Of a stretch of 64,000 nt of DNA, positions 1,467 through 54,738 are shown piece after piece. This DNA is from Candidatus Paceibacter sp. (GTDB taxonomy: Bacteria > Patescibacteriota > Patescibacteriia > Magasanikbacterales > UBA922): contig DYFM01000006.1 in the NCBI GenBank assembly GCA_020725175.1, positions 2,190-66,189 of the forward strand, read 5' to 3'. The notes under the pieces are model-generated. The model saw only the letters and a list, made by a program, of their open reading frames with translations, did no database searches and was not told where the DNA came from. The translations under genes and the position numbers were made by a program. The stretch's first letter is position 1; every line of letters starts with the position of its first letter.

Positions 1467-1634
1467 ATTGTAAGATTAATAGTAAGAAAAGTAACAGATA
1501 CGATAGGTTTGCGATCGCTATCACCTATAGCTAACGCTGATCCGTTTTTTTTGTGACGATATACCCATCTGATCTAAGGCATATCGACATGAACTATTTT
1601 TTTTTTGCTATATTTAGCTTTTTTTAATGAATTT

Positions 1635-1787
1635 CCCCGCCGCACGTGTCCGCCTTACCTGTCCGCCTGGGGTGGAGGGTGGAAGCGGACGGGGTACCAC
1701 TATAGGAAAATCCGTAGCAAGCTACGGGGAATAAGACCCGCTTCCGCCTTGCTGTGCACGCCTGGGGCTGTGGACGGATTCAGAACA
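1635..1787. repeat. GC-rich dispersed repeat, copy A (full length about 150 nt) with internal hairpins (GTCCGC..GCGGAC; CCGTAGC-aa-GCTACGG)
   Basis: High-GC island in AT-rich intergenic DNA; about 75% identical to the copy at 23830-23985; partial copies at 5565-5627, 49108-49168 and 61587-61625. Confidence 0.6.
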
Positions 1788-3529: not shown

Positions 3530-3540
3530 AATTTTATCGA

Positions 3541-3684
3541 AACAGCGAAATGACGAAATAAAGAAATAAGGTAATAGTTATGAAAGTACAATTACTAGAA
3601 CATACAATGAACATTTAATCTGTTTCGTTATTTCGTTATTTCGTTATTTCGTTATTTCGTTATTTCGTTGTTTCTTTATTTCGA
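3541..3684. repeat. Inverted pair of octamer arrays: GAAATAA-type units (3541-3570) versus a (C)GTTATTTC x6 tandem array (3621-3684)
   Basis: Direct 8-nt tandem repeats readable in the sequence; the same architecture recurs at 5501-5660, 18340-18420, 24028-24065 and 39641-39735. Confidence 0.6.
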
Positions 3685-4359
3685 TACAACAACCGCATAC
3701 CATGTATAAAATCCATATACTCCTCCCCCACTCCAAAAATCCAACAGTTCTTCTTCAGAAAGCGTCCGATTTCCCGGTAGCACCCCATTATCATCCACAG
3801 TTAACCCACTCTCTCCCGCATCATGCCACGAATCATATACATAAAATTCCTTATCTTCAAAATGAAAACCAACCAAAGTAAGATAATGTTGTACGCCTTT
3901 TTTCTCTCCCAGCAGAATAATCGGTTGTCCAGCAGATAAATTTGAGCGTAAAAACGCAATTCGTTCACTATCGGTAATAGATGCATCATGAAGTCGGAAA
4001 GATTCTGGAATAAAATCCATTTCTCTCAGCGCCTGTTCGATTCCCAGTGGATGAGTACCGTAGCGGGGAATTTGGTACGAAATTGTAGCGGCAACTTTTT
4101 CAGAGGAAATATCATTCTTTCCCAAAACTCTTGCAACCGCCGCCACACTATAGGGTCCACAGGTCGTACCGGTTTGAAGATAGTTAAACGCTGAAGGATA
4201 ATTCAACGCGACCACATCTCGCGATTCAGTAAACACCGGAGGGATCTCCCGTGTACCAGAAAAAAGTCCACTATAATAAAAAACAAACCAAGCGAAAAAG
4301 AAAAGGAGAGGGATGGAAATTGATTGTAGAATAAAAACAATATTGACCGGTGAACGCAT
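3676..4359 (-). CDS. Membrane-anchored C39-like (papain-fold) cysteine peptidase domain protein
   Basis: TTCGPYSVAAVARVLG (Cys) ... QHYLTLVGFH ... VYDSWHD (His) pattern of Peptidase_C39_2; N-terminal TM segment. Start moved to the internal Met (MRSPV) to avoid overlap with the upstream gene. Confidence 0.55.
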   Translation of the reverse strand: MRSPVNIVFILQSISIPLLFFFAWFVFYYSGLFSGTREIPPVFTESRDVVALNYPSAFNYLQTGTTCGPYSVAAVARVLGKNDISSEKVAATISYQIPRYGTHPLGIEQALREMDFIPESFRLHDASITDSERIAFLRSNLSAGQPIILLGEKKGVQHYLTLVGFHFEDKEFYVYDSWHDAGESGLTVDDNGVLPGNRTLSEEELLDFWSGGGVYGFYTWYAVVVSK

Positions 4360-5494: not shown

Positions 5495-5564
5495 AATTAG
5501 TTCGAAATATCGAAACAAAGAAATAGCGAAATAAATTGATTGACATAAAGAAATGTGCGTTATT

Positions 5565-5627
5565 TCCCCGACCCAGACAGGTCCGCCTTGCCTGTCCGCC
5601 TAGGGTGGGGACGGAGTTACTTCTTTA
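5565..5627. repeat. GC-rich dispersed repeat, partial copy C, flanked by octamer arrays
   Basis: CCCCGACCCAGACAGGTCCGCCTTGCCTGTCCGCCTAGGGTGGGGACGGAG shares the GTCCGCC-TNGGGTGGGG core with copies A and B. Confidence 0.5.
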
Positions 5628-5655
5628 TTTTTTTATTTCTTATTTCATTATTTCG

Positions 5656-7074
5656 TTATTCCACCTTCCGTTTCCGAAACAACACAAATGGTGTTTTAAT
5701 GAAAATAACAAAATCCAACATCACACTCCATTTTTCCGTATAAAAAATATCAAGCTTCACCTCTTCTTCAAAATCAAGGTCACTGCGTCCGGAGATTTGA
5801 GCAAGTCCGGTGATGCCTGGCTTCAACGTAAACACTGTAGGGTACATTGCCTCATACGCCTTCACCTCACGGGGCTGGTGCGGACGTGGCCCGACAATAC
5901 TCATCTCACCTCGCAACACATTCCAAAATTGTGGTAACTCATCTATACTCCAGCGACGAATAAACCGACCAAACGGAGTTACACGTGGATCATTGATAAT
6001 TTTATATATCGGACCTTTACGGCTATTATTCTTCTTGATCAATTCTTGTTCTTTTTTTTCAGCCAATGTTCCGTTTTCTCCAAATTGAGAACCAGTAGAA
6101 TCTTTTTGATACATCGAGCGAAACTTGAGCGTAAAAAATCGTTGCCCCCGAATACCAACTCGTTCATTGCGATAAATTATTGGACGACCGGTTTCAAGAA
6201 GAATCGTGATAGCGGCAACAAGAAATATCGGGCTGGTGAGTATAAGAACAACGATACTCAACAGAATATCAAACAACCGTTTTTCTACTCTTCCCCAGCC
6301 ATCAAGCGGTGTTTTTCGGAGTTCTACCACTGGCACTCCGGCAATGGGGTACATGGTCATATTTCCAGAAAGTGTCGCAAACAAATCGGCTGAATATTTG
6401 AATAAAATATGTCGCAAGTTACAAAACTCAATCGCTTTGAGTGCTTCTTCTTCTCTCCCTCTCGGGTTTGCAAAAACCAGCTCATCCAAGCGTGCTTCGT
6501 GCAATTTTTTTATTGTTGTACCTGTAAATGATTTGTAATTTCCCACCAACTGGTATCCAAGTTCTCGGCGAGTTTGAAATGCCGTGATAATTGTCTCAGC
6601 AACCGCGTCATCTCCAATAACGGCTACTCGACGAAGTCCTAGCCCATGGCGATACATGAGAGATTTTGCTCCTCGTATGAGCAATCTGCCAATACTCACA
6701 TACACTACTGCAAATGCCCATCCGGCTGCCACTAAGAACCGAGAATCAAATTCTTCATTGGCAAACATGACATAAATCGCAACTGCCGCCAATCCGACAG
6801 TACAGGCACTCAGTACGCGTTGCAAATCTTTAGCCATTTTGCGATTTGGATCCGTGGAATAGAGTCCGGCAAAAGCAAAGATAACCAACCAACCCACTCC
6901 TACCAGCCACACAATGTTGAGAAATTCCACTAATGAAAGTTTGAAGAGTACCGGTCGTAGTGTCACCGCCCAATCACTAAATCGAAGGGCATACGCTGAA
7001 ACCCCCGCCAACAATAACATAATAAAATCAATTGGCACCTGGAGAATCATGAGAAAAAGTTCTGCGCGCTTCAT
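5656..7074 (-). CDS. Undecaprenyl-phosphate sugar phosphotransferase (bacterial sugar transferase, WbaP/EpsL-like)
   Basis: Multi-TM N-terminus; C-terminal bacterial sugar-transferase domain (PRPHQPREV..KPGITGLAQISGRSDL..DIFY). Confidence 0.8.
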   Translation of the reverse strand: MKRAELFLMILQVPIDFIMLLLAGVSAYALRFSDWAVTLRPVLFKLSLVEFLNIVWLVGVGWLVIFAFAGLYSTDPNRKMAKDLQRVLSACTVGLAAVAIYVMFANEEFDSRFLVAAGWAFAVVYVSIGRLLIRGAKSLMYRHGLGLRRVAVIGDDAVAETIITAFQTRRELGYQLVGNYKSFTGTTIKKLHEARLDELVFANPRGREEEALKAIEFCNLRHILFKYSADLFATLSGNMTMYPIAGVPVVELRKTPLDGWGRVEKRLFDILLSIVVLILTSPIFLVAAITILLETGRPIIYRNERVGIRGQRFFTLKFRSMYQKDSTGSQFGENGTLAEKKEQELIKKNNSRKGPIYKIINDPRVTPFGRFIRRWSIDELPQFWNVLRGEMSIVGPRPHQPREVKAYEAMYPTVFTLKPGITGLAQISGRSDLDFEEEVKLDIFYTEKWSVMLDFVIFIKTPFVLFRKRKVE

Positions 7075-7161: not shown

Positions 7162-7163
7162 AT

Positions 7164-7559
7164 AGACAATTGAGAATAAGCCGAATTTTGTATCCCAAAA
7201 TAATTGGGAGGTAATCATTTCTCTTGCTCTACCATTACTGATAGAGTCATAAACGAGCCAACTTTCCATCCCGACAAGTCGGGACGCTGCTCTTTCTCCA
7301 GGTAGGGTTTACCATCCCGACTGAGTCGGGAAGCATTGTCGCCTTTTATCTAGAACAAAAGACATCAATGCACTTTTCACCTTTCTCCCGACAATGTCGG
7401 GATAGTATTGTCTCTGTGGCACTGTCCCGTTCTATACCTTACGGTATAGAAGGTGGGTGTTACCCACTACCCTTTTCCTCAGTGTTAAACACCAAGAGGA
7501 GTTCGGACTTTCCTCACCACCCCTCGAAAGAGGTGGAGCGATTACCATGTCAATTGTCT
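7164..7559 (-). ncRNA. rnpB: RNase P RNA (bacterial type), about 396 nt
   Basis: On the minus strand: GAGGAAAGUCCGAACUCC (CR-I) and AAUUCGGCUUAUUC (CR-V). The P4 strands AG(U)CCGAA / UUCGGCU pair with covariation relative to E. coli GG/CC. P1 is formed by AGACAAUUG (5') and CAAUUGUCU (3'); a P3 hairpin CCACCUCUUUCGAGGGGUGG is present. Confidence 0.75.
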
Positions 7560-15174: not shown

Positions 15175-17925
15175 TTATTTAGTTAATACACCCAGTTGCT
15201 CTTGAAGTTTTTTTAACTTCTCTCTCGCCTCTTCAAGTTTTTTCTTCTCGCCCTCCACCACTGCCGCCGGAGCATTGTTGACAAACTCATCATTCGCTAA
15301 TTTCTTTTCAAGAGAAATAACATAAGGCTCAATTAGTGCAATCTCTTTTTGAATTCGCTCTTTTTCTTTTTCAAGGTCAACACTTCCTGATAAATCCATA
15401 AACACCTCCACCTCCGATTCTATAAATCCAACGGCTCCATCTGGTTTGGCGATTGTTTTCTCAATTGTACAGTTCTCGAGACGTGCCATTCCTTTGAGTA
15501 TCTCAACATTTTTCTGTAGCAGTTCTATTTGCTTACCAGCACTTATGGTAACAGCAACTTTTTTCGCCGGTTCAATGTTATATTCTGAACGAAGATTTCG
15601 AACACCTGTAACAATACGCTTCATGAGTTCAAACTGTTCTTCTGTCCCTATAACGTCTTCACTCCTTTGAATAGTCGGCCATGGCGCAACCATAAGTAAT
15701 TGTTCTTCACCATACACCTCTTGCCAAATCGCTTCAGTCACAAACGGCGTATACGGATGCCACAATTTCAAGAGGGTATTCAGTATATAATTCAACACTT
15801 CTGCTTTGCCACCCTCAATCTTCGCGATTTCCAAATACCAGTCAGCCAAATCATTCCACGTAAAATCACGCAACGATTCAGCCGCATACGAAAAATCAAA
15901 TGAATCCAAATTCTTTGTAACACCTGTAACCAACGTATCAAGTTTTTTTAATATCCATTGATCAGCTAGTGTTTTTGCTTCCGGTCGAACTTGGTCCCCG
16001 CCTCTTCGGCGGACAGGCTTGTTCATTGTTCCTTGTTCCTTGTCCACGGTCATCAACATAAACCGACTCATATTCCAAAGCTTGTTTACTAAATTTCTTC
16101 CAGCCTCAACTTTTTCCATGTAAAACCGAGAATCATTTCCTGGAGCTACCCCAACCATCAGACTAAATCGAAGAGCATCTGTTCCATATTCTTTAATAAC
16201 ATCAAGTGGATCAATACCATTTTTTAGTGACTTGGAAAATTTCCTCCCATCTTTGTCACGAAGTATACCGTGTACATACGCATCTTTAAAGGGAATATCA
16301 TTAAATAAGTAAGCCGAAAACAAGATCATGCGAGCCATCCAGAGAGAAACAATTTCATAGCCCATTTGCATCCATGAAGTCGGAAAAAAAGTCTTGAAGT
16401 CTTTGTGCTCAGGTCCTCCCAATGTTGCAAATGGCCACATACCCGAAGAAAACCAGGTATCGAGCGTATCTTCGTCTTGGGCAATGTTTCCACCACATTC
16501 AGGACAAGCTTTCAATTTCTCAGATGTAACAACATATTGGCAAGTTGTTCCTTGTTCCTTGTTCTTTGCTCCTTGACAATACCACACCGGAACTCTGTGC
16601 CCCCACCAGATCTGCCGACTAATACACCAATCATACAGATTATCAACCCACGCAAGATAACTTTTCTCAAACCGCTCCGGATTGACAATCGTTTTCTTTT
16701 TCGCATTTCCATCTAGACCTATTGTTACCGCCTCTCGCATCAACTCTTTGAGCGACTTTCCTCGACCAGGGATTTCTTTATTTACATCCACAAACCATTG
16801 AGTCATAGGAATAGACTCAATAATATCACCAAATCGGTCAGATGTTGCCACACTCTGATCAATTTCCTGTTCCTCAATCAACAATCCCTCAGCTCGCAAC
16901 CAATCTACTACCTGCTCTCGAGCTTCTTCAACAGTTTTCCCTTCATACTTTGTACCAGCTTCTTTGGTCATAAGACCATCTTTTCCTATTACCTGAATCA
17001 AACCAATATCATTGCCCAACGCTTTCTGTTTCAAGTACATTTCAAAATCAATTGGACTATGAGCCGTTGTTACTCCCAACGCCCCCGTCCCAAAACTATC
17101 ATCAACATTTTCATCCGCGATAATTTTCAAACGTAATGTATGTCCAGCTTGCCCAAAGTTCTCAATCACGAATTCTTGACCTACATACTCTTTCCATCTT
17201 CCTTCCGGATGAACTGCTACTGCAGTATCACCAAGCTTTGTTTCGGGTCGAGTGGTTGCAATAGGAATCGGAAAACTCTCAGAATATTTAAAAGTATACA
17301 ACTTTGACTTGCGTTCAATATAAGCCAACTCATCATCACTCGAAGTTGACTGTCCTTTTACCGACCAATTTACAACTCGATATCCGCGATAAATCAATCC
17401 ATCGTCGTACATTTTCTTAAAGACTATATTAACAATTTTTGATCTCTCCTCATCAAATGTATACGCCAACCGTGACCAATCCGCACTGGTTCCCATTTTT
17501 TTAATCTGACTGAGAATAGTTGTTTTTGACTGTTCAGCATACTCACGAATCTTTTCGAGCAACCCTTCACGACCCAATTCCAGTCGAGGATTTTTCATAC
17601 CAGCCTCAACCAAATTTTTTTCCACCCGAGCCTGAGTTGCAACAGCCGCATGGTCAGTTCCGGGAAGTAGCAACACTTTTTTTCCATTCATTCGTTGATA
17701 CCGCGCCATCACATCCATAAGTGTGTTTTCTAGCGCATGTCCGAGATGAAGCACACCGGTCACATTTGGTGGTGGCATCATGATACTGTATGGCTCCCGA
17801 GAATCCGGATTATCCACCCAAGGCGGACACGCCTCGGGCGTGAAATATCCACTATCTTCCCAGCGTTTGTAGATAGCATCTTCGTATTGTTGTGGTTCGT
17901 AGGCTTTAGGGAGTTCTTTATTCAT
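15175..17925 (-). CDS. valS: Valyl-tRNA synthetase
   Basis: PPPNVTGVLHLGHA (HIGH region), KFSKS, editing domain, C-terminal coiled coil; 916 aa. Confidence 0.9.
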   Translation of the reverse strand: MNKELPKAYEPQQYEDAIYKRWEDSGYFTPEACPPWVDNPDSREPYSIMMPPPNVTGVLHLGHALENTLMDVMARYQRMNGKKVLLLPGTDHAAVATQARVEKNLVEAGMKNPRLELGREGLLEKIREYAEQSKTTILSQIKKMGTSADWSRLAYTFDEERSKIVNIVFKKMYDDGLIYRGYRVVNWSVKGQSTSSDDELAYIERKSKLYTFKYSESFPIPIATTRPETKLGDTAVAVHPEGRWKEYVGQEFVIENFGQAGHTLRLKIIADENVDDSFGTGALGVTTAHSPIDFEMYLKQKALGNDIGLIQVIGKDGLMTKEAGTKYEGKTVEEAREQVVDWLRAEGLLIEEQEIDQSVATSDRFGDIIESIPMTQWFVDVNKEIPGRGKSLKELMREAVTIGLDGNAKKKTIVNPERFEKSYLAWVDNLYDWCISRQIWWGHRVPVWYCQGAKNKEQGTTCQYVVTSEKLKACPECGGNIAQDEDTLDTWFSSGMWPFATLGGPEHKDFKTFFPTSWMQMGYEIVSLWMARMILFSAYLFNDIPFKDAYVHGILRDKDGRKFSKSLKNGIDPLDVIKEYGTDALRFSLMVGVAPGNDSRFYMEKVEAGRNLVNKLWNMSRFMLMTVDKEQGTMNKPVRRRGGDQVRPEAKTLADQWILKKLDTLVTGVTKNLDSFDFSYAAESLRDFTWNDLADWYLEIAKIEGGKAEVLNYILNTLLKLWHPYTPFVTEAIWQEVYGEEQLLMVAPWPTIQRSEDVIGTEEQFELMKRIVTGVRNLRSEYNIEPAKKVAVTISAGKQIELLQKNVEILKGMARLENCTIEKTIAKPDGAVGFIESEVEVFMDLSGSVDLEKEKERIQKEIALIEPYVISLEKKLANDEFVNNAPAAVVEGEKKKLEEAREKLKKLQEQLGVLTK

Positions 17926-18288: not shown

Positions 18289-18469
18289 TTACGGATTACG
18301 GATAATACGGAGTGACGGATATTGTGTTGATTTAGAAAAAGTGAAATAAAGAAATAACAAAACAATTGACTATGAACAATTTACAACTATCTATTGTTTC
18401 GTTATTTCTTTTTTTCAGTCAAAGTATCCGTACCTCCGTATTATCCGTAATCCGTAACATATCCGTAAT
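18289..18469. repeat. Composite palindrome built from TACGGAT heptad arrays. Arms TTACGGATTACGGATAATACGGAG (left) and CTCCGTATTATCCGTAATCCGTAA (right) enclose a GAAATAA / TTATTTC inverted core
   Basis: Near-perfect inverted repeat of about 30 nt with a nested inner inverted repeat, readable directly in the sequence. Confidence 0.6.
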
Positions 18470-20395: not shown

Positions 20396-21979
20396 CTACA
20401 CCAGACTCCTCCCAGTCATTTCTAGCGGCTGTTCAATGCCGAGAATCTTAAGCATGGTAGGTGCGACATCGGCGAGCATGCCAACCGGAGGAAGTAAACT
20501 CAAATCGCCGTTTGGCGGATCTCCCGACGGTCCGGCCTGTCCATGAAACTGCTCACCTATGATATACAATGGAACAAGATTTGTACTATGTTCTTTATCC
20601 ATTTCCGTGGTTTGTAGATTCACGACTTCTTCCGCATTCCCATGATCTGCGGTAATAAGAAGCACTCCACCTTTAGCAAGGACATGAGCCGCAATGTCAC
20701 CCAAACAGGTATCGACTGTTTCACAGCCACGAATTGTTGCTTCCAAATTGCCGGTATGTCCCACCATATCTCCATTGGCAAAGTTGATCAAAATAGTATC
20801 ATATTGTTCTGCATCAATGGCTTTCACCACATCTTTAGCTATCTCCCGCGCAGACATTTCCGGTGCTTGGTCATAAGAAGCAACTTTTGGAGACGGAATA
20901 ATTTTTCGCTCTTCTCCCGGAAAGGGATCCTCTATCGTTCCATTTAGGAAAAAAGTGATATGCGCGTACTTTTCTGTTTCCGCTACATGGTACTGCGTTA
21001 AACCTTCTTTACTAATTACTTCCGCCAAACTGTTATGAATGATGACCGGCGGAAATGCTACCGTAACCGGAATTTCTTTTTCATACTCTGTCATTGCCAC
21101 AAAATTTAGATCATTGATATATGTTCGTTCAAATTTGGTAAACGCCGGGAGCACAAAAGCCTGAGTGATTTCTCGTGCTCGATCAGCTCGAAAATTAAAA
21201 AAGATTAACGCATCTCCTGACTCTACCGTAGCTACTGGCTTTTCTTTTGTCCCAATAACTGTTGGAACAAATTCTTCATCATATATTTTTTTTTCGTAAG
21301 AGGCCTCAATCGCCGTAATCGGATCTGTAGCATAGTCTTTGGCAATACCCTCCGCAATCGCTCGATACGCAGCCTCCACCCGATCCCAACGATTATCACG
21401 ATCCATTGCCCAATATCTTCCCATCAAAGAAGCTATTTTCCCCACTCCTAATTCTTTCATCTTTTCTTGTAACTGCTCAATAAATCCTTTTCCGCCGTTG
21501 TACAGTGCATCGCGTCCATCCATCATAGCGTGGACATACACCTCTTTCAAGCCATGTTTTGCGGCCAGTTCTAGGAGTGCAAAACAATGACTATCACTGG
21601 CATGGATATTCCCCGGACTCACCAGTCCCATGATATGAAGTTTGGACTTATTCTTTTTCACTTGTTCAACTGCTTGCAAAAATGCGGCGTTTTCAAAAAA
21701 AGAACCATCATCAATCGCTTTATTGATACGTGGAAACGTCTGATAATAAATTCTACCCGCACCTATGTTTAAATGTCCCACCTCTGAATTACCCATTTCT
21801 CCAAACGCCAGTCCAACTTCATTCCCGGACGCACGAATCGCCATAACTGGATACTCACGAGCGAATCGATCCAAGTTTGGTGTTTTTGCTTTGGTAATCG
21901 CGTTTCCGTCACCATCAGGTGCGATGCCCCAGCCATCGAGAATGGCAAGCACTACCGGACAAGGTCTTGACTTATTCAT
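20396..21979 (-). CDS. gpmI: 2,3-bisphosphoglycerate-independent phosphoglycerate mutase
   Basis: VVLAILDGWG N-terminus, metal-binding Ser region, ADHGN C-terminal motif; 527 aa. Confidence 0.9.
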   Translation of the reverse strand: MNKSRPCPVVLAILDGWGIAPDGDGNAITKAKTPNLDRFAREYPVMAIRASGNEVGLAFGEMGNSEVGHLNIGAGRIYYQTFPRINKAIDDGSFFENAAFLQAVEQVKKNKSKLHIMGLVSPGNIHASDSHCFALLELAAKHGLKEVYVHAMMDGRDALYNGGKGFIEQLQEKMKELGVGKIASLMGRYWAMDRDNRWDRVEAAYRAIAEGIAKDYATDPITAIEASYEKKIYDEEFVPTVIGTKEKPVATVESGDALIFFNFRADRAREITQAFVLPAFTKFERTYINDLNFVAMTEYEKEIPVTVAFPPVIIHNSLAEVISKEGLTQYHVAETEKYAHITFFLNGTIEDPFPGEERKIIPSPKVASYDQAPEMSAREIAKDVVKAIDAEQYDTILINFANGDMVGHTGNLEATIRGCETVDTCLGDIAAHVLAKGGVLLITADHGNAEEVVNLQTTEMDKEHSTNLVPLYIIGEQFHGQAGPSGDPPNGDLSLLPPVGMLADVAPTMLKILGIEQPLEMTGRSLV

Positions 21980-22016
21980 ATTGGATAAAGAATAAAAACA
22001 AAAAGTAGTTCAGAAA

Positions 22017-22140
22017 TCCCAAGACACAAGAAACAAGATACAAACAAATTTCAAATATCAAATGACAATTTCTCAAATGTATTGGGATTTTGATATTGTC
22101 TATTGAGCTTTGTTTGGAAATTGTACCTTGTGTCTTGGGA
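22017..22140. repeat. Intergenic inverted repeat (TCCCAAGACACAAG ... CTTGTGTCTTGGGA) enclosing about 95 nt
   Basis: 14-bp perfect inverted repeat between the two gpmI paralogs. Confidence 0.4.
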
Positions 22141-22141
22141 T

Positions 22142-23722
22142 TTACAATAATGATGTTCCAGTCATTTCTTTTGGTTTTGGAATGTGTAGTAATTTTAAAA
22201 TAGTCGGTGCCACATCAGCCAACCGTCCATTTTTTCTAAGTAGCTTCTTTGGCAGATTATTTGAAATTAAAATAAACGGTACTGGATTGGTCGTATGTTC
22301 TGTCATCATCTCGCCGGTTTTTTCATCAATCATTTGTTCCGCGTTTCCGTGATCAGCAGTAATACACACTTGTCCATTTTGCTTCAGTACCGCTTGTACT
22401 AATCGATCAACTTCTTTATCAAGAATATGAACTGCTTTTTTTGCGGCCTGGAAATTTCCAGTATGCCCAACCATGTCAGCGTTTGGGAGGTTCACGACAA
22501 TAAAATCATACGTACCTTTTGAAAAATAGCCAATTATTTTTCGCGTCACTTCTTTCGTCATCATTTGCGGAAGATCAGCATACGTATAGTGTCCAGAAGA
22601 ACGAATAAGTTCTCGATCTTCACCATTGATAGGGTCCGCAAAACCGCCATTGATAAAGTAAGTCACATGCGCATACTTTTCTGTTTCTGAAATGTACAAC
22701 TGTTTTCTGGTTTCACCAATTGCCTTGGCAAGACACATCTGAATATCCGGACTCGGAAAGGCGGTCAACACTCGAGACAGATCCGGTCCAAAATCTGACA
22801 TAGCCACAAAACAGATGTTTCGAAGCACCTTTTTTCGTTTGAATGATCCGGGATTTAATTTGTTAAATGCCGGCTGGACAAAGGCTTTTGTCAACTGTCG
22901 CGCTCGATCACTCCGTGCGTTGAAAAAAATTACCGCATCACCTTCATCCACCATAGCCAATGGTTTTCCGTTTTTTTGTATGACAGTTGGGTGAAGATAT
23001 TCATCGGTTTCATTTCTATTATACCCTTGTTCAATAGCCTCTTCAGCACTTACAGCCTTATGTTCTGCTTTTCCTCTTACAATTGCATCATACGCCATTT
23101 CGGTACGGTGCCACAACTTGTTTCGATCCATAGCATAAAATCTCCCCATGATTGATGCTATGCGTACTCGTGGTGTGAGTTGTTTTTGCAGTTGTTTCAA
23201 ATATTTAATCGCTGAGTGTGGAGAAGAATCACGTCCATCCGTAAAAAGATGTACATACACGTGCTTAACCCGCCTCAGTTCGCAATAACGAAGTAATGCG
23301 TACAAATGCTCAGGATGTGCGTGTGCACTATCACCGTCAGTCAAGAGCCCCATAACATGAACCGCACCACGATGTTTTTTTGCATGTCGAACCGCTTGTT
23401 CAAATGATGGATTGTTGAAAAATGTTTTGTTTTTAATTGCCTCAGAAATTCGAACCAAATCCTGCTCGACAATTCTCCCAGCCCCAATATTGAAATGCCC
23501 GGCTTCAGAGTTTCCTTCTTGCCCCACGAACAGTCCCACGTCTTTACCGTGTGCCTTGAGGGTTGTACTAGGATATTTTTTCATATACGCAAATATGTGC
23601 GGTACTGTTTCCGGCGTGATGGCATTTCCCGGTTTCTTCGGATCAGCAAGTCCAAATCCATCAAGAATAATCAGAAGAGTAGGGGGAATTTTTTGACTTG
23701 TTTTTGGGAATTTTGTGACCAT
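22142..23722 (-). CDS. Second iPGM-family paralog (phosphoglycerate mutase or related phosphopentomutase-like metalloenzyme)
   Basis: LLIILDGFG, GHFNIGAG, ADHGN motifs. Start set at MVTKFPK; the upstream ORF extension runs into GC-rich repeat B. Confidence 0.8.
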   Translation of the reverse strand: MVTKFPKTSQKIPPTLLIILDGFGLADPKKPGNAITPETVPHIFAYMKKYPSTTLKAHGKDVGLFVGQEGNSEAGHFNIGAGRIVEQDLVRISEAIKNKTFFNNPSFEQAVRHAKKHRGAVHVMGLLTDGDSAHAHPEHLYALLRYCELRRVKHVYVHLFTDGRDSSPHSAIKYLKQLQKQLTPRVRIASIMGRFYAMDRNKLWHRTEMAYDAIVRGKAEHKAVSAEEAIEQGYNRNETDEYLHPTVIQKNGKPLAMVDEGDAVIFFNARSDRARQLTKAFVQPAFNKLNPGSFKRKKVLRNICFVAMSDFGPDLSRVLTAFPSPDIQMCLAKAIGETRKQLYISETEKYAHVTYFINGGFADPINGEDRELIRSSGHYTYADLPQMMTKEVTRKIIGYFSKGTYDFIVVNLPNADMVGHTGNFQAAKKAVHILDKEVDRLVQAVLKQNGQVCITADHGNAEQMIDEKTGEMMTEHTTNPVPFILISNNLPKKLLRKNGRLADVAPTILKLLHIPKPKEMTGTSLL

Positions 23723-23829
23723 AGTACAAATACTATAGCGTAAAATGGGAGATAAATCAACCATAAAAAAGTGCTGTACAACACTTTTTATATTCAGAAA
23801 CACAGATAATCCCTCTCGATTCAATGAAT

Positions 23830-23985
23830 GTCCCCGCAGCACGTGTCCGCCTGGGGTGGAAGCTGACGGGGTATCGCTATAGGTAGTTTTTCCCGATCAA
23901 ATCGGGAGAGAATAAAACCCTCGTCCGCCTTGCTTTGCACGCCTTGCTTGTCCGCCTTGGGTGGGGGCTGTGGGCGGATTAAACA
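23830..23985. repeat. GC-rich dispersed repeat, copy B (full length)
   Basis: Aligns with copy A over about 150 nt; the internal hairpin is changed with compensation (CCCGATcaaATCGGG versus CCGTAGCaaGCTACGG); terminal GGCGGATTAAAC. Confidence 0.6.
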
Positions 23986-24027
23986 AACACTTACACGCAC
24001 AACCTCTTCTTTCTTCATTTGGTTATT

Positions 24028-25321
<1,294 letters not shown>

Positions 25322-26355: not shown

Positions 26356-26460
26356 ATGTTTTAAGTCTAAATTCTAAAGTCTAAAGTTATAAGTAATAAT
26401 CCAAAATCAATGCGCATGACTTTAGACGTATAACTTATGACTTCAGTACTTCAAGCATAC
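26356..26460. repeat. Intergenic palindromic AAGTCTAAAG-type repeat cluster
   Basis: TAAGTCTAAATTCTAAAGTCTAAAGTTATAAGT ... CATGACTTTAGACGTATAACTTATGACTT, an imperfect inverted arrangement. Confidence 0.4.
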
Positions 26461-37496: not shown

Positions 37497-37752
37497 AGTT
37501 GTTGAAGAATTAAGCAGAATAGGCAGAATAGGCAGAGTAAGCATTGATTTTTTAGAAGTATCAACACTCACATAGCATCCTCTAAGCTGCAAGATTTACT
37601 TTAAAAATTTGACTATATATAGTGGTAGTAGCCTGTACAACTATCTATATAAAACAGAACACCGGTCAAAACAAATGCACAATCTACCTAATCTGCTTAT
37701 TCTACCTACGCACCCTTTTCACCACCATTAATTTCTTTATTTCGCTATATTA

Positions 37753-38481
37753 TTATTTCGCCACCTCTTTATTCTCCTGCTTCACAAGGGCATTGTTTCT
37801 CATTTCCTTCCCCTCTTTCACCGCTTCCGCCACCAGGTTAACCATGAGAGTAATAGATTTTACCGCATCATCGTTCGCAGGAATAATATAATCTGCCTTG
37901 AGAGGGTTTGCATTTGTATCGGTAATACCGATAATTTCCACACCGGTTTTTCCCGCCTCAGTCACAGCGGTTTTTTCTCTCTGAAGTGATGGAAGAAAAA
38001 TCGCATCCGGCATTTTGGTCAGCGTTACCAAACCACCGAGAGACTGGTCTTGTTTTTCGAGTTTTTTGTTAATTTCCAGTTGTTCTTTTTTGGTATATTT
38101 ACCAAGCTCTCCGGCTTCTTGCTGCTTCTTGAGAGAAACATACGACATGATCATGCGGTGGATTTCCGGGAAATTGGTCAACATACCGCCGATCCATCGG
38201 TCGGTAAGATACGGCATACCACAGTCAATCGCCGCCGCTTTGACGATATCACGTGCTTGCGGTTTGGTCGTGACAAACAAAATGGTTTTTCCTTCTGAAA
38301 CCATGCGAGTAATAGCCGCCAAGGTTTCTTGCAGTTTTACCTGAGTTTTTTCCAGATCAATTACATGAACACCATTTCGATCGGTGTAAATGTATGGCTT
38401 CATTTTTGGATGCCAGCGAGACTTCTGATGACCGAAGTGTACTCCGGCCTGCAGCATCTCCAAGATGCTTGGTAATTTCAT
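37753..38481 (-). CDS. rpsB: 30S ribosomal protein S2
   Basis: MLQAGVHFGHQKSRWHPKM signature; 242 aa. Confidence 0.9.
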   Translation of the reverse strand: MKLPSILEMLQAGVHFGHQKSRWHPKMKPYIYTDRNGVHVIDLEKTQVKLQETLAAITRMVSEGKTILFVTTKPQARDIVKAAAIDCGMPYLTDRWIGGMLTNFPEIHRMIMSYVSLKKQQEAGELGKYTKKEQLEINKKLEKQDQSLGGLVTLTKMPDAIFLPSLQREKTAVTEAGKTGVEIIGITDTNANPLKADYIIPANDDAVKSITLMVNLVAEAVKEGKEMRNNALVKQENKEVAK

Positions 38482-39510: not shown

Positions 39511-39640
39511 TGGGCACTACAATACGGGATCACAGGAACACTACAGCACTACATGACTGCGGTACTAGTAAACGAGATGGTTGAGGGAGGGAATCTATCG
39601 AAATACTGTACAACTATTTAGAATATGCAACCAATTTCGA

Positions 39641-39735
39641 TATTTCCCTATTTCGTTGTTTCTTAGTTTCTTTATTTCCCTATTTCTTTATTTCCTTATT
39701 TCGATATTTCTCTATTTCGATATTTCGTTGTCTCT
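39641..39735. repeat. Octamer array (CTATTTCG / TTATTTCC units, about 11 copies)
   Basis: Direct tandem 8-mers; translating it causes a spurious N-terminal extension of the downstream ORF. Confidence 0.5.
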
Positions 39736-39745
39736 TTCACCACCT

Positions 39746-41170
39746 ATGAAAAAACGCATTCTCTTCCTATTAATCATCATTCTCATAGGAAACATTTTCC
39801 TCACCTCAAATGTTCATGCCCAGCTCGATCAACGCTGTTGGACAAAACAAGAATGTATTGACGCTCGAAAAGAAAGTGCCAAGCCCTTTGAAATGACTGA
39901 AGCTGAAGCTGCAGATGGGTTTTACAACGAGCCGGACGCAGTGGCGATATGCGGTGAAAAGAGTGCTGCCGGTGAAGAAATGGGATTTTGTCTACCTTCT
40001 TACAAAACAAAGACCCAAATCAAGTTTGGCGGTAATGATACGTTTCTCCACATGGGAGAATTCATTCAATTTATGTACCGCTATGGTATTTGGATTGTCG
40101 GACTAGCAGCGGTATTTATGATTATTGTCGCCGGCTTCCAACGATTGACATCGGGTGGAAATCCTGATAGCATTCAATCTTCGAACAAAAAAATTACCGG
40201 GTCAATTATAGGGGTCACGCTCGCGGTTACCTCGTATCTTATTTTGAATACCATCAATCCAGCTCTCGTAAATTTACGCCTCCCGCAGATCTGGATGGTG
40301 AATCCGCAGGCTCTAACGCCATCATTTTGTTCTGAACTTGATGATACTCAACTGGTAGCTCCACTTGGCCCTTCCGGACAACAGTACAGCAATGAACAGA
40401 AGGAGACAGCTTACAAAAGCAGTATTGCTTCCAGCGCATTCCAACCGATTTCCCAAGCAAAACCAAAATGCGGAACAGATTTTCTCGTTGACGGTGCCGG
40501 CAGCGCCACCTGTTCCGGAACATTTTGTAAAGAAGGTGGTGGACAGGTGTGTTTTCAAGGTGTGAATAATAATGATAAAGTACCAACCTGTAAAAAAGGA
40601 AATATTGCCGGGCTTGTTTACAATTCAAACATTTTTGCCGATACGTTTATTGGAGCATTAAATGAAGACTTTGAATGGCCATGGGTAACTGATCCAATTA
40701 CACCTGGTCAAGATGCTTTAGACTTAGAAGCAACCTGCATGGATGGCACACTGATTGAAAACATTGTTTCACTAGAGGACCTCTCTACTTACGATGACAT
40801 TAAGAAAATACAATTCTATTCTTTATCCATAAGTGAGAATGAAATATCTGAAACAATAGATACATGCTCATCGCACGGCGGATTAAAAGGATTTATGCTT
40901 GACATGTCATTCAATGAAGATTTTGCACTTGACAGTGAGGACCATTATATAGTTAATAATTCTTCACGAGTAGGAATTGACTTAGGAGATTTAGCCGCAT
41001 TTAAAAAAACTAGACTTACCACACCAAAAGAAATGTTCATTTCTCCTGATGATTTAAGACAAGGAATACAGTTGGATATTAATGCAGGAAAAGTTTGTGA
41101 CATTGATAACGCTTTCGAAGATGGACACCCAAGAAGAAAACAATGTTATGGAAAATATGGTTATGAATAA
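39746..41170 (+). CDS. Secreted Cys-rich hypothetical protein with a central two-helix membrane hairpin (TrbC/VirB2-pilin-like topology)
   Basis: Signal peptide MKKRILFLLIIILIGNIFLTSNVHA; TM1 YGIWIVGLAAVFMIIVAGF, short loop, TM2 IIGVTLAVTSYLILNTI; about 290-aa C-terminal domain with many Cys; 12 nt upstream of uvrA. Confidence 0.5.
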   Translation: MKKRILFLLIIILIGNIFLTSNVHAQLDQRCWTKQECIDARKESAKPFEMTEAEAADGFYNEPDAVAICGEKSAAGEEMGFCLPSYKTKTQIKFGGNDTFLHMGEFIQFMYRYGIWIVGLAAVFMIIVAGFQRLTSGGNPDSIQSSNKKITGSIIGVTLAVTSYLILNTINPALVNLRLPQIWMVNPQALTPSFCSELDDTQLVAPLGPSGQQYSNEQKETAYKSSIASSAFQPISQAKPKCGTDFLVDGAGSATCSGTFCKEGGGQVCFQGVNNNDKVPTCKKGNIAGLVYNSNIFADTFIGALNEDFEWPWVTDPITPGQDALDLEATCMDGTLIENIVSLEDLSTYDDIKKIQFYSLSISENEISETIDTCSSHGGLKGFMLDMSFNEDFALDSEDHYIVNNSSRVGIDLGDLAAFKKTRLTTPKEMFISPDDLRQGIQLDINAGKVCDIDNAFEDGHPRRKQCYGKYGYE

Positions 41171-44032: not shown

Positions 44033-44190
44033 CTCTAATTCACCTAATGTCTAATTTCTAATGAAATGTCAAATACAAACAAACAACTTCCATTCGCCTT
44101 TGGTTACTGCGTGTAATGTAGTACTACTGAAAACAAATGTATGGAATATGGTGAACAATTGTTAGAAATTAGACATTAGAAATTAGAAAT
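44033..44190. mobile_element. MITE-like unit bounded by terminal inverted repeats: TCTAATTCACCTAATGTCTAATTTCTAATG ... TTAGAAATTAGACATTAGAAATTAGAAATT
   Basis: Inverted repeats of about 30 nt enclosing about 100 nt; closely related TIRs bound the element at 49053-49270. Confidence 0.45.
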
Positions 44191-44211
44191 TTTCTTTCCT
44201 CTATCATAAAC

Positions 44212-46421: not shown

Positions 46422-46494
46422 GGGCCTGTAGCTCAGGGGTTAGAGCACAACGCTTATAACGTTGGGGTCGGTGGTTCAAAACCACCCAGGCCCA
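46422..46494 (+). tRNA. tRNA-Ile with anticodon UAU (Ile-type body, reads AUA)
   Basis: GGGCCUGUAGCUCAGG...GGUGGUUCAAAACCACCCAGGCCCA closely resembles the bacterial tRNA-Ile(GAU) body; anticodon loop CUUAUAA; extended -10 (TGCTATACT) upstream. Confidence 0.75.
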
Positions 46495-46497
46495 CAT

Positions 46498-46791
46498 ATG
46501 CATTATGTGTACTTTCTTTGGAGTGAAAAACTGCAAAAAATATACATCGGAGAAAGTGCGGATATTATCGCAAGATTACAGTATCATAATTCCGGCAGAC
46601 AAAGATTTACCTCACGCGGCATTCCTTGGAAACCAATTGCTTGTATACCATTTGCGAGTAGAGCAGAAGCACTAAAAGAAGAAAAACGTTTAAAAAAGTT
46701 ACGTAGTAGGCCGTATCTTAAACAATATCTCCTAACTCAGGGGAGAAAGTTTCCTTTCTCAGGGGTTAGTCCCGATCACATCGGGATATAA
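46498..46791 (+). CDS. Small stand-alone GIY-YIG nuclease-domain protein (about 97 aa), filling the gap between the tRNA-Ile and its duplicated 3' half
   Basis: GIY-YIG motifs YVYFLWS..KIYIGESADIIARLQYHNSG; the ORF starts 4 nt after the tRNA and its stop codon overlaps the start of the duplicated tRNA segment. Confidence 0.7.
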   Translation: MHYVYFLWSEKLQKIYIGESADIIARLQYHNSGRQRFTSRGIPWKPIACIPFASRAEALKEEKRLKKLRSRPYLKQYLLTQGRKFPFSGVSPDHIGI

Positions 46792-46828
46792 CGTTGGGGT
46801 CGGTGGTTCAAAACCACCCAGGCCCACA
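46787..46828 (+). repeat. 42-nt direct duplicate of the tRNA-Ile 3' half (TATAACGTTGGGGTCGGTGGTTCAAAACCACCCAGGCCCACA), followed by the presumed original tRNA terminator
   Basis: Exact 42/42 match to 46455-46496; followed by the hairpin AAATAGCCAAATTTGGCTATTTTTTG. Confidence 0.85.
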
Positions 46829-48442: not shown

Positions 48443-48471
48443 ACATAAGGAAGAAAACAAAAAAAACATGA

Positions 48472-48556
48472 AAACAATAAAGCAATAAAGCAATATAACA
48501 ATTTAGCAATATAACAATTTAGCAATATAACAATTTAGCAATATAACAATGTAACC
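48472..48556. repeat. Tandem repeat, 16-nt unit CAATATAACAATTTAG x about 4, preceded by AAAGCAATA units
   Basis: Direct tandem repeat readable in the sequence. Confidence 0.7.
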
Positions 48557-48879
48557 ATTTAACACATAACACGATAATTAAAAAATATCACACTACATCC
48601 GTAGTGTTTTTTTAAACAACAAACATACAAACAAAAAAGTTATTCACAGTTTTACTTGCAACACTATTTCAAAAAAACAAAAAACATTTTATACTATATG
48701 TGAAAGGTCGAAGAAAAAATTTTTGTAAAAAAATTTTTTCGAATAGTTTTTACATCAATGCTTGTCATGTAAAAACGGCGACGTATTTGTAGGATCATTT
48801 GGTGTGTACCATGGTCATGTCAAATATGATTGCAAATACAATCTTCATCCTTCATTAGAAGGAATTACTTCAATATATT

Positions 48880-49052: not shown

Positions 49053-49270
49053 TTCTAATGTCTAATTCCTAAAGAAGTATACAGCGGATTCAAAATTTTA
49101 ATTAATGTCCCCGTAGCAAGCTCCGGGAAATAAAACCCTATGCACGCCTGGAGCTGTGGGCGGATTTACATTTTAGCTTTTCTTTAATGAGGTGGTAGGT
49201 GTAATGCAGACTTATTCTAGGTTTTACATTAGGCTTTGTATTAGAAATTAAACATTAGACATTAGAAATT
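49053..49270. mobile_element. TIR-bounded MITE-like element carrying a partial GC-rich repeat (copy D, 49108-49168)
   Basis: TIRs TTCTAATGTCTAATTCCTAA / TTAGAAATTAAACATTAGACATTAGAAATT resemble those at 44033-44190; the core CCCCGTAGCAAGCTCCGGG..CACGCCTGGAGCTGTGGGCGGATTTACA matches the 3' half of copy A. Confidence 0.45.
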
Positions 49271-49288
49271 TCCTGTCTCCAATTTTTT

Positions 49289-50564: not shown

Positions 50565-50670
50565 TAATTTCCAAATAAAAAATTCCAATTTCCAATCTGC
50601 GTGATTTGATACTACCACATAATGATCGCTTTGGAAATTGGAAATTGAAATTTGGAATTTATTTACCAGC
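50565..50670. repeat. Intergenic inverted repeat AAATTCCAATTTCCAA ... TTGGAAATTGGAAATT
   Basis: 16-bp inverted repeats about 35 nt apart, made of GGAAAT / ATTTCC direct sub-repeats. Confidence 0.4.
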
Positions 50671-52168: not shown

Positions 52169-52894
52169 TTATCTCCCCACATACTCAATCTCTCCCTGAT
52201 CCAACCGTCGCAAACCAGCATCATTTGTCATTTCTTCATATATATGTGCCACCAGCCCTGGTACACGCGCAATAATAAACAACCCCTTCATGATCTGCCA
52301 ATCAAATCCCATGTCAGACAAAATCGCTGCCATTGAGCCATCGATATTGATTGGCAACGGCTTTGAAGATTGTTCATTCAGTGCATCGTGAACCGCAAGG
52401 GCAAATTCACAATGTTTTCCAAAAAAACCAACCTCACGTGCCATATCAAACAGAGCTTTGCTCCGATGATCAACTTTTAAAACAGCATGCCCATACCCCG
52501 GAATTCGTATTTTTTCTTGTTTAAACGTTTTTACCAAGCCCGCGACATGTTCTTCTCCAACATGAAACTGAAAAAACTTGGCCGCCCCTTCAATTGCCCC
52601 ACCATGTCGTTCACCCATCGCCAAGATGCCGGCAGCCAGCGACGTGTGGAGATTATTTTTTGCTGACGCCGTGATTCGGACCACTTGTCCAGAAGCGGTG
52701 CCAGGACCATGATCGATTGCAGCGGTAAACAATGCGTTTAACATCTTCGTTTCTTTTTCCGTCGGTAATTGCCCCCGCAAGATCAAAAAAATAGTCTCGA
52801 CAAAAGAATGATTTTTGATTAGTTCTTCGAGCGCATAACCGCGGATGAATTCGTGTTCGTTGACGATGTTGGTGATGGAGGTGGTGTATTTCAT
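52169..52894 (-). CDS. Citrate-synthase-family C-terminal-domain protein (citryl-CoA-lyase-like, 241 aa)
   Basis: Retains the three citrate-synthase catalytic positions (MGERHGGAIE, GYGHAVLKVDHRS, a downstream Asp) but lacks the N-terminal half of a full citrate synthase. Confidence 0.65.
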   Translation of the reverse strand: MKYTTSITNIVNEHEFIRGYALEELIKNHSFVETIFLILRGQLPTEKETKMLNALFTAAIDHGPGTASGQVVRITASAKNNLHTSLAAGILAMGERHGGAIEGAAKFFQFHVGEEHVAGLVKTFKQEKIRIPGYGHAVLKVDHRSKALFDMAREVGFFGKHCEFALAVHDALNEQSSKPLPINIDGSMAAILSDMGFDWQIMKGLFIIARVPGLVAHIYEEMTNDAGLRRLDQGEIEYVGR

Positions 52895-52914
52895 ATTTTT
52901 ATATCAATAACTAA

Positions 52915-53292
52915 CTAAACCTTATCCTTTAGACATTTAATACCCTTAATCAACTTATTCAACTCTTTTGCAATCTCATTTAGTGTTTGCAAGATTTTTA
53001 CAGAGATAGCATCCGATACTAAAGAACGTTTATTTGCCTGCTTTATCCAAAATTGCGATTCGTACAATGAGCCGCGGGCGTAATAATAGAATTTTACTTT
53101 ATCAGCATAGTGATATCGCCCAAATGCCTCAGCAATGTTTGCAGCAATTGAATCTACAGCCCTCGTCAATTGTTTTCCAATACTGTCCTTCTCAAAATAT
53201 TTCCACTTTACTATTTCATTCCAAACCACATCGGATACTTCTACCGAAGCAATATACACCGGCATATCTTGCAAGTAAAGTATTTCTTTCAT
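52915..53292 (-). CDS. Four-helix-bundle protein (TIGR02436 / rRNA intervening-sequence protein family)
   Basis: Characteristic length (about 125 aa) and helical pattern YASVEVSDVVWNEIVKW..QLTRAVDSIAANIAEAFGR..YYARGSLYE; start set at MKEILY. Confidence 0.65.
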   Translation of the reverse strand: MKEILYLQDMPVYIASVEVSDVVWNEIVKWKYFEKDSIGKQLTRAVDSIAANIAEAFGRYHYADKVKFYYYARGSLYESQFWIKQANKRSLVSDAISVKILQTLNEIAKELNKLIKGIKCLKDKV

Positions 53293-53365
53293 ACTATACC
53301 CGATACTGATATTAATATCGATATACAACGTATTAAACTGCTATAGCCTTGATATTTATTTTACC

Positions 53366-54262
53366 TTATGCAAAGGGTGCTACTAAAGTAACAAGATCTT
53401 CATATCGCTCTGCAATCATCACACCCACCTCTTTCAGTACAACTTCCTTCTCCTCGGCACTCTGCCCTCGCCCGACAATCGCCCCAGCATGACCGATGTT
53501 CATTCCTTCGGGAAATAAATTGGCAAATTTCCCACCGATGTAAATTGCGAGAGGTTTGGTAAATCCACCAGATTTAATCAAATCAACAATTTCAAATTCA
53601 TAACTACCACCATGTTCTCCAAAGATAACTACGGCTTTCGTATTTTCATCCTGCTCAAATTCTTTTAACAAATCAGCATACGTAGTGCCCATCAACAAAT
53701 CACCGCCCACATGTACCGCCGCACTTTGTCCCAGACCGGCTTTTCGAATTTGCCAGGCGACTTCATTGGTCATACCACCTGATCGAGAAATAAGACCAAT
53801 TGATCCCAGTTGAAATACCTGATCACAAAGTTCTTTTGGACCACCGACCACACCAATTCGTCCGACCCCCGGAACGATGAACCCAAGCGAGCTTGGTCCG
53901 ATGATGCGAATGTTTTTTTCTTTAGCGGCGGCGAGACAGTAAGCAGTATCTTTAATTGGAATACGTTCAACGATTACACTGATGAGTGGAATATCAGTAT
54001 CAATCGCTTCCAGAATTGCGGCTTTGGCAGCAAACGGTGGAACATAAACAGCGCTCACCGAAACATCTGGGTATTGTTGCTTCGCTTCTGTTACGGAATT
54101 AAACACCGGCTTTCCTTCTACTTCCTGTCCACCCTTACCCGGTGTTACCCCACATACAACATTTGTACCATACTCAAACATAGCCTTGGCAGCTTTTTGT
54201 CCTTCTTTACCGGTGATACCTTGGATAAGGACAGAAGTATGTTGTTGAAGAAGAAAACTCAT
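53366..54262 (-). CDS. sucD: Succinyl-CoA synthetase alpha-subunit-like protein (CoA-binding plus CoA-ligase domains)
   Basis: Collinear with E. coli SucD: VLIQGITGKEG, GVTPGKGG, SRSGGMTNEV, active-site GHAGAI. Start set at MSFLLQ; the upstream ORF extension is unsupported. Confidence 0.8.
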   Translation of the reverse strand: MSFLLQQHTSVLIQGITGKEGQKAAKAMFEYGTNVVCGVTPGKGGQEVEGKPVFNSVTEAKQQYPDVSVSAVYVPPFAAKAAILEAIDTDIPLISVIVERIPIKDTAYCLAAAKEKNIRIIGPSSLGFIVPGVGRIGVVGGPKELCDQVFQLGSIGLISRSGGMTNEVAWQIRKAGLGQSAAVHVGGDLLMGTTYADLLKEFEQDENTKAVVIFGEHGGSYEFEIVDLIKSGGFTKPLAIYIGGKFANLFPEGMNIGHAGAIVGRGQSAEEKEVVLKEVGVMIAERYEDLVTLVAPFA

Positions 54263-54738
54263 ATGGATGTAAATGCGCCAATAAAGACAGTAAACAAAAT
54301 TATTAGGGAAATAACAGTACTCACAAAAAACCAAACAGAAAAAATACCGTGCACAATACGGTACATTTGGACAGATTTTGATGAAACAAGAGCCAATAGC
54401 CAAAAAAATAGTACATAATATACCGCCGGAACCAGAAACAACCAAAAACTTTCGCCACCTGAAAAGATACTATCCACTACCCACAAAATGAACGTAGAAG
54501 GAAACATGGTGACAATCCACAAAACAATCACTGGCAGGGATGTGAGATAGCTCCAAACAGTATCAGGAATATTGGCAATACGTCCGAGATATATAAGAAA
54601 GGTAATAATGATCAATGCAAACAACAATAATGTTCCGTGAAGTCCAAGCCAAAAGAAGGCCATCTTTTTTCGCGAACGATGATATATGTTTTCTCCTTGC
54701 TCAGTGAAACCGAGAATTAGATTCAGAAGTTTTTTCAT
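54259..54738 (-). CDS. Hypothetical 4-TM membrane protein
   Basis: 159-aa hydrophobic ORF with no recognisable motif. Confidence 0.45.
   Translation of the reverse strand: MKKLLNLILGFTEQGENIYHRSRKKMAFFWLGLHGTLLLFALIIITFLIYLGRIANIPDTVWSYLTSLPVIVLWIVTMFPSTFILWVVDSIFSGGESFWLFLVPAVYYVLFFWLLALVSSKSVQMYRIVHGIFSVWFFVSTVISLIILFTVFIGAFTSI

Follow-up and report, generated by a model that had tools for sequence, protein, structure and literature searches.

A modular, hairpin-rich repeat family of Candidatus Magasanikbacteria, probably mobile now or formerly, dispersed in intergenic DNA

The 64,000-nucleotide stretch of DNA analysed here, referred to as the window, matches JGI metagenome contigs and the NCBI MAG contig DYGQ01000012.1 at 99.99-100% identity, and its enolase is closest to Candidatus Magasanikbacteria proteins, with 70-75% identity. 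As the preliminary description of this DNA had reported, five intergenic sites in the window carry copies of a GC-rich repeat; all are on the plus strand (Table 1). Copy c1 lies between two minus-strand genes and is antisense to both. Copy c2 separates the genes for enolase and iPGM, which are also on the minus strand. The genes flanking copies of the family are functionally unrelated, and include those for LigT, DUF389, TspO, S11 peptidase, DnaE, FtsQ, enolase/iPGM and glycosyltransferases. The GC content of the copies is 48-62%, compared with 40.7% for the window, in line with the initial statement that they are GC-rich in a genome of roughly 40% GC. Elsewhere in the window, ATP-citrate-lyase-like pieces are spread over several ORFs (52169-54445 and 57410-58633) with citrate-synthase C-terminal, CoA-binding/ligase and ATP-grasp/citrate-binding domains, and two of these pieces are separated by a gene for a "23S rRNA intervening sequence protein" (52915-53328).

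Table 1. Repeat copies, element parts and related features; positions are those of the window unless another sequence is named
Feature	Position	Strand	Remarks
Full-length copy c1	1623-1783	+	Seen in the sequence; nhmmer against the family profile, E=2e-24; 60% GC
c1, 5' box			TTTAATGAAT
c1, P1 stem	1635-1643 / 1685-1694		
c1, P1 loop			Holds two GTCCGCCT units
c1, linker			GAATAAGACCC
c1, inner hairpin	1712-1727		CCGTAGC-AA-GCTACGG
c1, 3' domain	1742-1781		
Full-length copy c2	23820-23983	+	Seen in the sequence; nhmmer against the family profile, E=1e-21
c2, P1 stem	23832-23840 / 23862-23871		
c2, inner hairpin	23891-23907		TCCCGATCAAATCGGGA
c2, 3' domain	23923-23983		With an extra 20-nt GTCCGCCTTGGGTGG module
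Internally deleted copy c49	49096-49168	+	nhmmer family profile, E=1e-9; exact 24-nt 3' block retained
Short form	5565-5627	+	Two GTCCGCCTTGCCT units, then mini-hairpin; within TTATTTCN octamer arrays
Short fragment	61587-61625	+	CACGCCTGCCCGCCTTGGGTGGGG; only ~25 nt family-derived
Two tandem mini-hairpins	17806-17846	-	In-frame in the ValRS gene; 16-nt exact family match
Sixth intergenic copy, same genome	L040 16474-16525		Just beyond the window; near-twin of 5565-5627
Element part 1, 5' box			TTAATGAAC-TACC
Element part 2, P1 stem			CCYCG-CAGC / GCTG-A-CGRGG around a variable loop
Element part 3			0-3 further GC-rich hairpins from a small module set
Element part 4, linker			(A/T)TTAAACC
Element part 5, 3' hairpin domain			GTCCGCCTTGCNNNGCACGCCTNGGGCTGTGGGCGGATTAA; near-invariant, including loops, across all genomes
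TCCCGAC..GTCGGGA 7-bp stems	7269-7284, 7315-7331, 7386-7402		In RNase P RNA, 7162-7557 (-)
Period-8 arrays	3538-3698, 5503-5534, 5619-5661, 18289-18457, 22014-22143, 24009-24083, 26363-26394, 37731-37773, 39613-39750, 44162-44198, 48444-48563, 49223-49277, 50565-50661, 60611-60678, 61203-61234, 61609-61676		

Self-comparison and nhmmer placed the start of c1 at about 1623 or 1626 and its end at 1783, and the start of c2 at about 23820 or 23823 and its end at 23983. The ends proposed earlier for these two copies therefore had to be revised, since a conserved 10-nt 5' box, TT[T/C]AATGAAT, lies upstream of the original starts. The site described as a partial copy at 49108-49168 was also genuine, but it begins at 49096 and is a full-length element minus two internal segments: its 5' box is fused straight onto a TAGCAAGCT hairpin, and the outer stem of its 3' domain has lost its 5' arm by deletion. 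The short forms at 5565-5627 and 61587-61625 consist only of one or more 13-nt GYMCGCCTTGCYT units and a terminal mini-hairpin, the second of them adjoining an unrelated inverted GGATTRAAC array. The blocks shared by the copies are genuine and not low-complexity chance, with six occurrences of CCGCCTNGGGTGG in the window against 0.03 expected from dinucleotide-preserving shuffles, and two exact occurrences of the 24-nt 3' block against 0 expected. Logan contig L003 terminates at window position 1650, within c1, and so resembles a repeat-induced assembly break.

Most intergenic regions of the window also hold tandem arrays with a strict 8-nt period, often as inverted pairs, and short copies of the GC-rich repeat are embedded in them. 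The units are locus-specific (TTATTTCG, TTACGGAT, GGATTGAAC, TTAGAAAT, AAGTCTAA, CAAGAMAC and GCAATAWA). Similar arrays lie just upstream of genes in the Magasanikbacteria contig L044 (TAATACCT) and occur in the unrelated 61% GC contigs L008, L018 and L021. These arrays may be more unusual than the GC-rich repeat family itself.

The complete element is a composite of about 115-200 nt. Its smallest units are mini-hairpins of 15-20 nt, YCCGCC-TNG-GGTGGR and CACGCC-TTG-GGCTGTG, whose number differs among copies; they stand in tandem in c1, c2 and the 5565 copy, are inverted in L009 (a related sequence; see below) and in the ValRS gene, and also occur alone and, once, in-frame within a gene. The hairpin modules include CCGTAGC-AA-GCTACGG, TCCCGAY-N3-5-RTCGGGA, CCTGCCGGCAGG and the GGGGAGAAG type. 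An optional 19-20-nt module of the 3' domain, TCCGCCTNGGGTGG, is found in c2, L006 and L009, and is missing from c1, c49 and L015. L006 and L015 represent one locus, 94-97% identical, and the insert is among the indels that separate them; the same module is inverted in L009 and solitary in L027 (5943-5958). TCCCCGCNGCACGTGTCCGCC and CTATAGG are common to the window copies and missing from copies in low-GC genomes, which implies amplification within the lineage. The preliminary description had interpreted the inner hairpins of c1 and c2, CCGTAGC-aa-GCTACGG and CCCGAT-caa-ATCGGG, as the product of compensatory changes. Instead, two modules have been exchanged, each of which recurs elsewhere in the family, and the argument from compensation fails as stated.

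The copies had been described as always intergenic. This is true of the five named sites but not of the ValRS gene, where an in-frame piece forms the hairpins CACGCC-CGA-GGCGTG and TCCGCC-TTG-GGTGGA. The segment, GCGTGTCCGCCTTGGGTGGAT, is similar over about 40 nt to c2 and to the 61587 fragment, in addition to its exact match to the module. It encodes part of ..TPEACPPWVD.., which is absent in the nearest homologues: more than 20 of these, with 66-77% identity, are 8-11 residues shorter exactly at this point.

Public collections were scanned with the pattern GCACGCCT-N(3-30)-GCTGTGGRCGGATT. True matches were confined to low-GC DNA, in ten metagenome contigs of 28-36% GC, and matches in GC-rich sequence were discarded as coincidences in coding sequence. 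Two Magasanikbacteria MAGs carry the repeat, CG1_02_32_51 with six exact 3' blocks on five contigs and CG_4_10_14_0_2_um_filter_33_14 with one site. The family is therefore not limited to the window but extends to two or more further species of Magasanikbacteria and to several metagenomes. Searching all low-GC loci by nhmmer, with one profile each for the full element, the 5' box and the 3' domain, gave no further copies. A phage or plasmid origin was rejected, as two patterns returned 0 matches in IMG/VR.

Evidence for occupied and empty sites came from the spacer between ScpB and the S11 peptidase. In L030, L046, L047 and L048 this spacer measures 205 nt and contains the element, which is stable there in three assemblies of a single species. 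The order ScpA-ScpB-S11 is kept in four relatives (L042-L045), where the spacer is -8 to 42 nt long and element-free, with no copy anywhere in the 58 kb of sequence from these four. This is a presence/absence difference at an orthologous site, between species rather than strains; since the comparison is across species, with S11 62-83% identical between the carrier and the four element-free relatives, the exact insertion boundaries are invisible. The enolase loci of three closer relatives (one contig or two overlapping ones per locus, together about 57 kb of distinct sequence) were also without a copy, as were the loci of all seven relatives together (about 115 kb of distinct sequence, two enolase loci being covered twice). 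In the window, two tandem paralogous iPGM genes (20396-21979 and 22142-23842) come directly after enolase, whereas recO follows enolase in three related Magasanikbacteria, so that c2 lies at a synteny break. At the strain level, two assemblies of the window organism are set apart by an indel, an ORF of 106 aa (L040 18701-19021 compared with L041), located between a CLIPPER-domain gene and a small GIY-YIG gene.

The element is probably a lineage-specific, modular, hairpin-rich repeat of Candidatus Magasanikbacteria, similar in kind to REP, BOX and RPE and mobile now or formerly. This reading is based on the dispersal of copies in unrelated contexts, the modular build, the decayed copies and the lineage-specific variants, and also on the patchy distribution, the empty site, the coding insertion and the lack of expression signals belonging to the element. 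The comparisons show copies that have spread inside genomes and from one genome to another, settling in non-essential DNA, and that have then decayed by deletion. Spread would have occurred by copy-and-paste, for which two routes are proposed: an enzyme acting in trans on the conserved ends and hairpins that it recognises, or recombination or template switching among the copies. Read-through transcription of the copies would yield stable stem-loops in UTRs. A dedicated sRNA function is not needed to explain the data. The preliminary description had proposed either a small-RNA family or a MITE/REP-like element; the second fits much better, given dispersed copies, some of them truncated or internally deleted, a patchy distribution among relatives, an empty site and an insertion in coding sequence.

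Some of the structural evidence is nevertheless what would be expected of multi-copy structured small RNAs, acting in trans or as the RNA subunit of an RNP, with a functional P1 and 3' domain and with variable hairpins that are tolerated. In P1, three of the ten pairs have changed on both sides: C-G versus T-A between lineages, A-T versus C-G between c2 and c1, and C-G versus T-A in L030. Overall, 89% of P1 cells are paired, compared with 20-44% in controls with slid partners, counts that derive from an N-padded hand alignment with variable loops reduced to GAAA, and hence from real bases on an artificial scaffold. The hand alignment was used because MAFFT put short copies wrongly in P1. True double substitutions of this kind lend support to some selection for pairing in P1, though not in the inner hairpin with its module swap. 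The P1 shuffle control, however, was marginal: as many covarying pairs as observed were reached by 49 of 500 shuffles, and individual copies break four of the pairs. Mismatches in P1 are present in L027m, L030, L022 and L029, and c49, without one stem arm of its 3' domain, is a further broken structure.

Genomes that share only about 70% enolase identity have a near-invariant 3' domain, even in its loops, and it varies too little to be informative for covariation. Such conservation needs sequence-specific recognition or recent horizontal spread, and constraint on the 3' domain and P1 would also fit a functional RNA or a protein-binding site. Folding gave a z-score of -2.3 for c2 and of -0.3 to -4.0 for the low-GC copies, most of which fold better than shuffles; that of c1 (-0.8) was not better than shuffles. 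In 10 of 12 copies the MFE is lower for the plus strand, and the mini-hairpins hold a conserved G-T wobble on that strand. With z-scores of -2.8 to -3.9 on the antisense strand, both strands fold about equally well, and the strand preference is weak.

Expression signals also argue against small RNAs. Consensus scans of the element strand at c1 and c2 revealed neither a sigma-70-like promoter upstream nor an intrinsic terminator downstream, and 5' flanks are not conserved between copies. Synteny is not conserved either, and the loci of seven relatives are element-free, as described above. Rfam 15 gave no match for c1 in an E-value scan of 1550-1900, none for the other window copies at the gathering threshold and none for five low-GC copies. 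A known RNA family was rejected, as Rfam on the window and five related loci returned only RNase P, tRNAs, a group I intron and noise. The intron (L022 179-588, minus strand, Rfam 52.7 bits) is on a Magasanikbacteria MAG contig that also has a copy of the element. Translation of a small peptide from a conserved ATGAA was considered as well, but frames and lengths differ between copies, and indels of 1, 19 and 20 nt are incompatible with coding. While the behaviour of P1 and the 3' domain is consistent with small RNAs, we regard them as an unlikely explanation of the family.

A cis-acting role has also to be weighed, in which the element spread as a repeat and was then domesticated in UTRs, as a 3'-end stabiliser, an attenuator or insulator, or an outward promoter, and kept for its effect on neighbouring genes. 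In low-GC MAGs, six of eight copies have the orientation of the next gene and lie 15-96 nt before its start codon, which hints at a role in cis. The position of copies between a stop codon or terminator hairpin and the next promoter, the stability of the hairpins and the persistence of the ScpB-S11 copy across three assemblies of one species agree with this. In the window genome, by contrast, the six intergenic copies in about 75 kb share one orientation, antisense to neighbouring genes; they oppose the 41 of 47 genes that are on the minus strand and also the G-rich strand (GC skew -0.15), so there is no single orientation rule. Promoter-like sites of the neighbouring minus-strand genes place c1 within a 5' UTR, in antisense. 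Judging from gene order, c2 would fall in the 3' UTR of enolase, again in antisense, with a promoter-like site beyond the element. The neighbouring genes have no common function, no consistent T-tract follows the 3' hairpin on either strand, and relatives have the same gene pairs without the element, all of which makes a domesticated UTR element improbable. A riboswitch or cis-regulatory leader was rejected because the downstream genes are unrelated and orientation to genes differs between genomes.

Hairpins of the family recur in structured RNAs. The sequence TCCCGAC..GTCGGGA has five matches in the window against 0 expected, and Rfam alignment assigns the three stems in RNase P RNA to P12, P14 and one helix in the P15-17 region. 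The same stem is the hairpin module inside c2, a recurrence that would also be in keeping with small RNAs, and is found in L009 and L022. The stem may represent a mobile hairpin or a protein-binding site held in common. The segment 46422-46828 contains, in this order, tRNA-Ile(TAT), a small GIY-YIG gene (about 46496-46790) and an incomplete copy of the tRNA that has TCCCGATCACATCGGGA in place of the D-stem and half of the anticodon stem; the last 42 nt of this copy exactly repeat the 3' end of the tRNA (46455-46496 = 46787-46828). Low-GC relatives (L015 2216-2446; L006 690-1225) have tRNA-Ile and GIY-YIG together with one or two hairpin-substituted pseudo-tRNAs, and the arrangement looks like a tRNA-targeting GIY-YIG mobile cassette.

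A further proposal is that Magasanikbacteria have a small mobile repertoire of 15-20-nt GC-rich hairpin modules that would insert in intergenic DNA, in ORFs (ValRS) and in peripheral helices of structured RNAs. For insertion in structured RNAs it draws on TCCCGAY..RTCGGGA, which forms the three RNase P RNA helices and replaces the D/anticodon region in the tRNA-Ile-like pseudo-copies beside the small GIY-YIG gene. The 115-200-nt composites would then be expressed, protein-bound RNAs, with a 3' domain recognised by a protein or nuclease specific to the lineage. We consider this proposal quite unlikely; if true, it would give bacteria an equivalent of mitochondrial GC clusters that acts at the RNA level.

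The ends of the element bear on how it might move. Inspection of 12 copies revealed a terminal inverted repeat of only 5 nt (TTAAT/ATTAA) and no consistent target-site duplication, whereas a MITE would have terminal inverted repeats of about 10-30 bp and a duplication flanking each copy. A weak, gapped subterminal match links CCYCGCAGC to the reverse complement of GCTGTGGG. TTAA is present at both ends of most copies, and ends deviate independently (c1 TTAA/TTCA, c2 TTCA/TTAA, c49 TTAA/TTTA, L029 TATA/TTCA); since one end can deviate without the other, TTAA acts like a component of the element. Hairpins lying close to each end, the absence of a long inverted repeat and of a target-site duplication, the abutting TTAA, G-T mismatches that define a "top" strand, and the one orientation of six copies in the window genome would fit a non-autonomous derivative of the IS200/IS605 or REP/RAYT type (PATE/REPIN), carried as a hairpin-bearing single strand. 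This would be a sub-case of the repeat reading, and a very doubtful one. No transposase, RAYT, Y1_Tnp or TnpB was found among 50 ORFs of the window with Pfam, and the gene lists of the other annotated loci, a small fraction of each genome, contain no mobilising gene. The mini-hairpins, 15-17 nt long, keep a G-T mismatch but have no GTAG-type REP head. In addition, window copies are opposite to leading-strand genes whereas most low-GC copies are co-oriented with genes, so no single replication-linked rule applies. Other known systems were rejected on inspection: integron attC sites because the end motifs do not match R''/R', DGR template/variable repeats because differences between copies are not confined to adenines and there is no RT gene, and CRISPR because there is neither an array nor cas genes.

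As a lineage-specific repeat, the element has parallels in several known families. BOX elements of Streptococcus pneumoniae (boxA-boxB(n)-boxC) are intergenic, multi-copy, modular and geneless, with predicted stem-loops, and their mobilising enzyme is not known. In the Magasanikbacteria element, too, a 5' box and a 3' box are conserved and flank internal modules that vary in number. Its internal modules, however, are of several kinds and exchangeable, it apparently has fewer copies per genome (at least six sites), and it is a GC-rich element in an AT-rich genome. The host phyla are unrelated and no relationship is expected. REP/BIME elements with RAYT, from Enterobacteria and Pseudomonas, are also short, GC-rich, imperfect palindromes with a polarity given by a conserved mismatch, arranged as single, tandem or inverted units in mosaic intergenic elements near terminators. 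They differ in that REP units are 20-40 nt long, longer than the mini-hairpins, and in having the GTAG head and a RAYT gene, the latter absent from the sequence examined here; the composite described here also has fixed 5' and 3' boxes.

RPE are repeats of 100-150 bp in intergenic and coding DNA that have proliferated in a lineage-specific manner (PMC1779305). Those of Rickettsia resemble the present family as interspersed palindromic repeats in a small AT-rich genome, with the in-frame module in ValRS as the coding example here. They differ in that only a 24-30-nt module is in a gene here, not the whole element; the sequences are unrelated and the host phylum is another. Correia elements, which are Neisseria MITEs, are similar in their length of 100-200 nt, their many intergenic copies, sometimes upstream of genes, and their presence/absence differences, but have 26-bp terminal inverted repeats and a TA duplication, compared with 5 nt and no detected duplication here. 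There are also parallels with yeast mitochondrial GC clusters and fungal double-hairpin elements, which are short GC-rich hairpins in AT-rich genomes, variable between strains, and insert in intergenic DNA, structured-RNA genes and occasionally ORFs. These elements are organellar and eukaryotic, and have AT/TAG target duplications, none of which was found here; the modules of the present family are built into a larger element with conserved ends.

CPR/Patescibacteria genomes are small and streamlined, and are generally considered poor in repeats and mobile DNA. A literature search found no description of an interspersed palindromic repeat family for this group. Through the ValRS insert, and through one hairpin reused in RNase P RNA and in tRNA-like copies, the modules may be shaping essential genes as well. 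The repeat family is a marker of strain-level variation and explains assembly breaks in Magasanikbacteria MAGs, and it warns annotators that such loci are not to be called sRNAs or small ORFs. It also provides a tractable case for studying the spread of repeats in genomes where recognisable transposases are almost absent.
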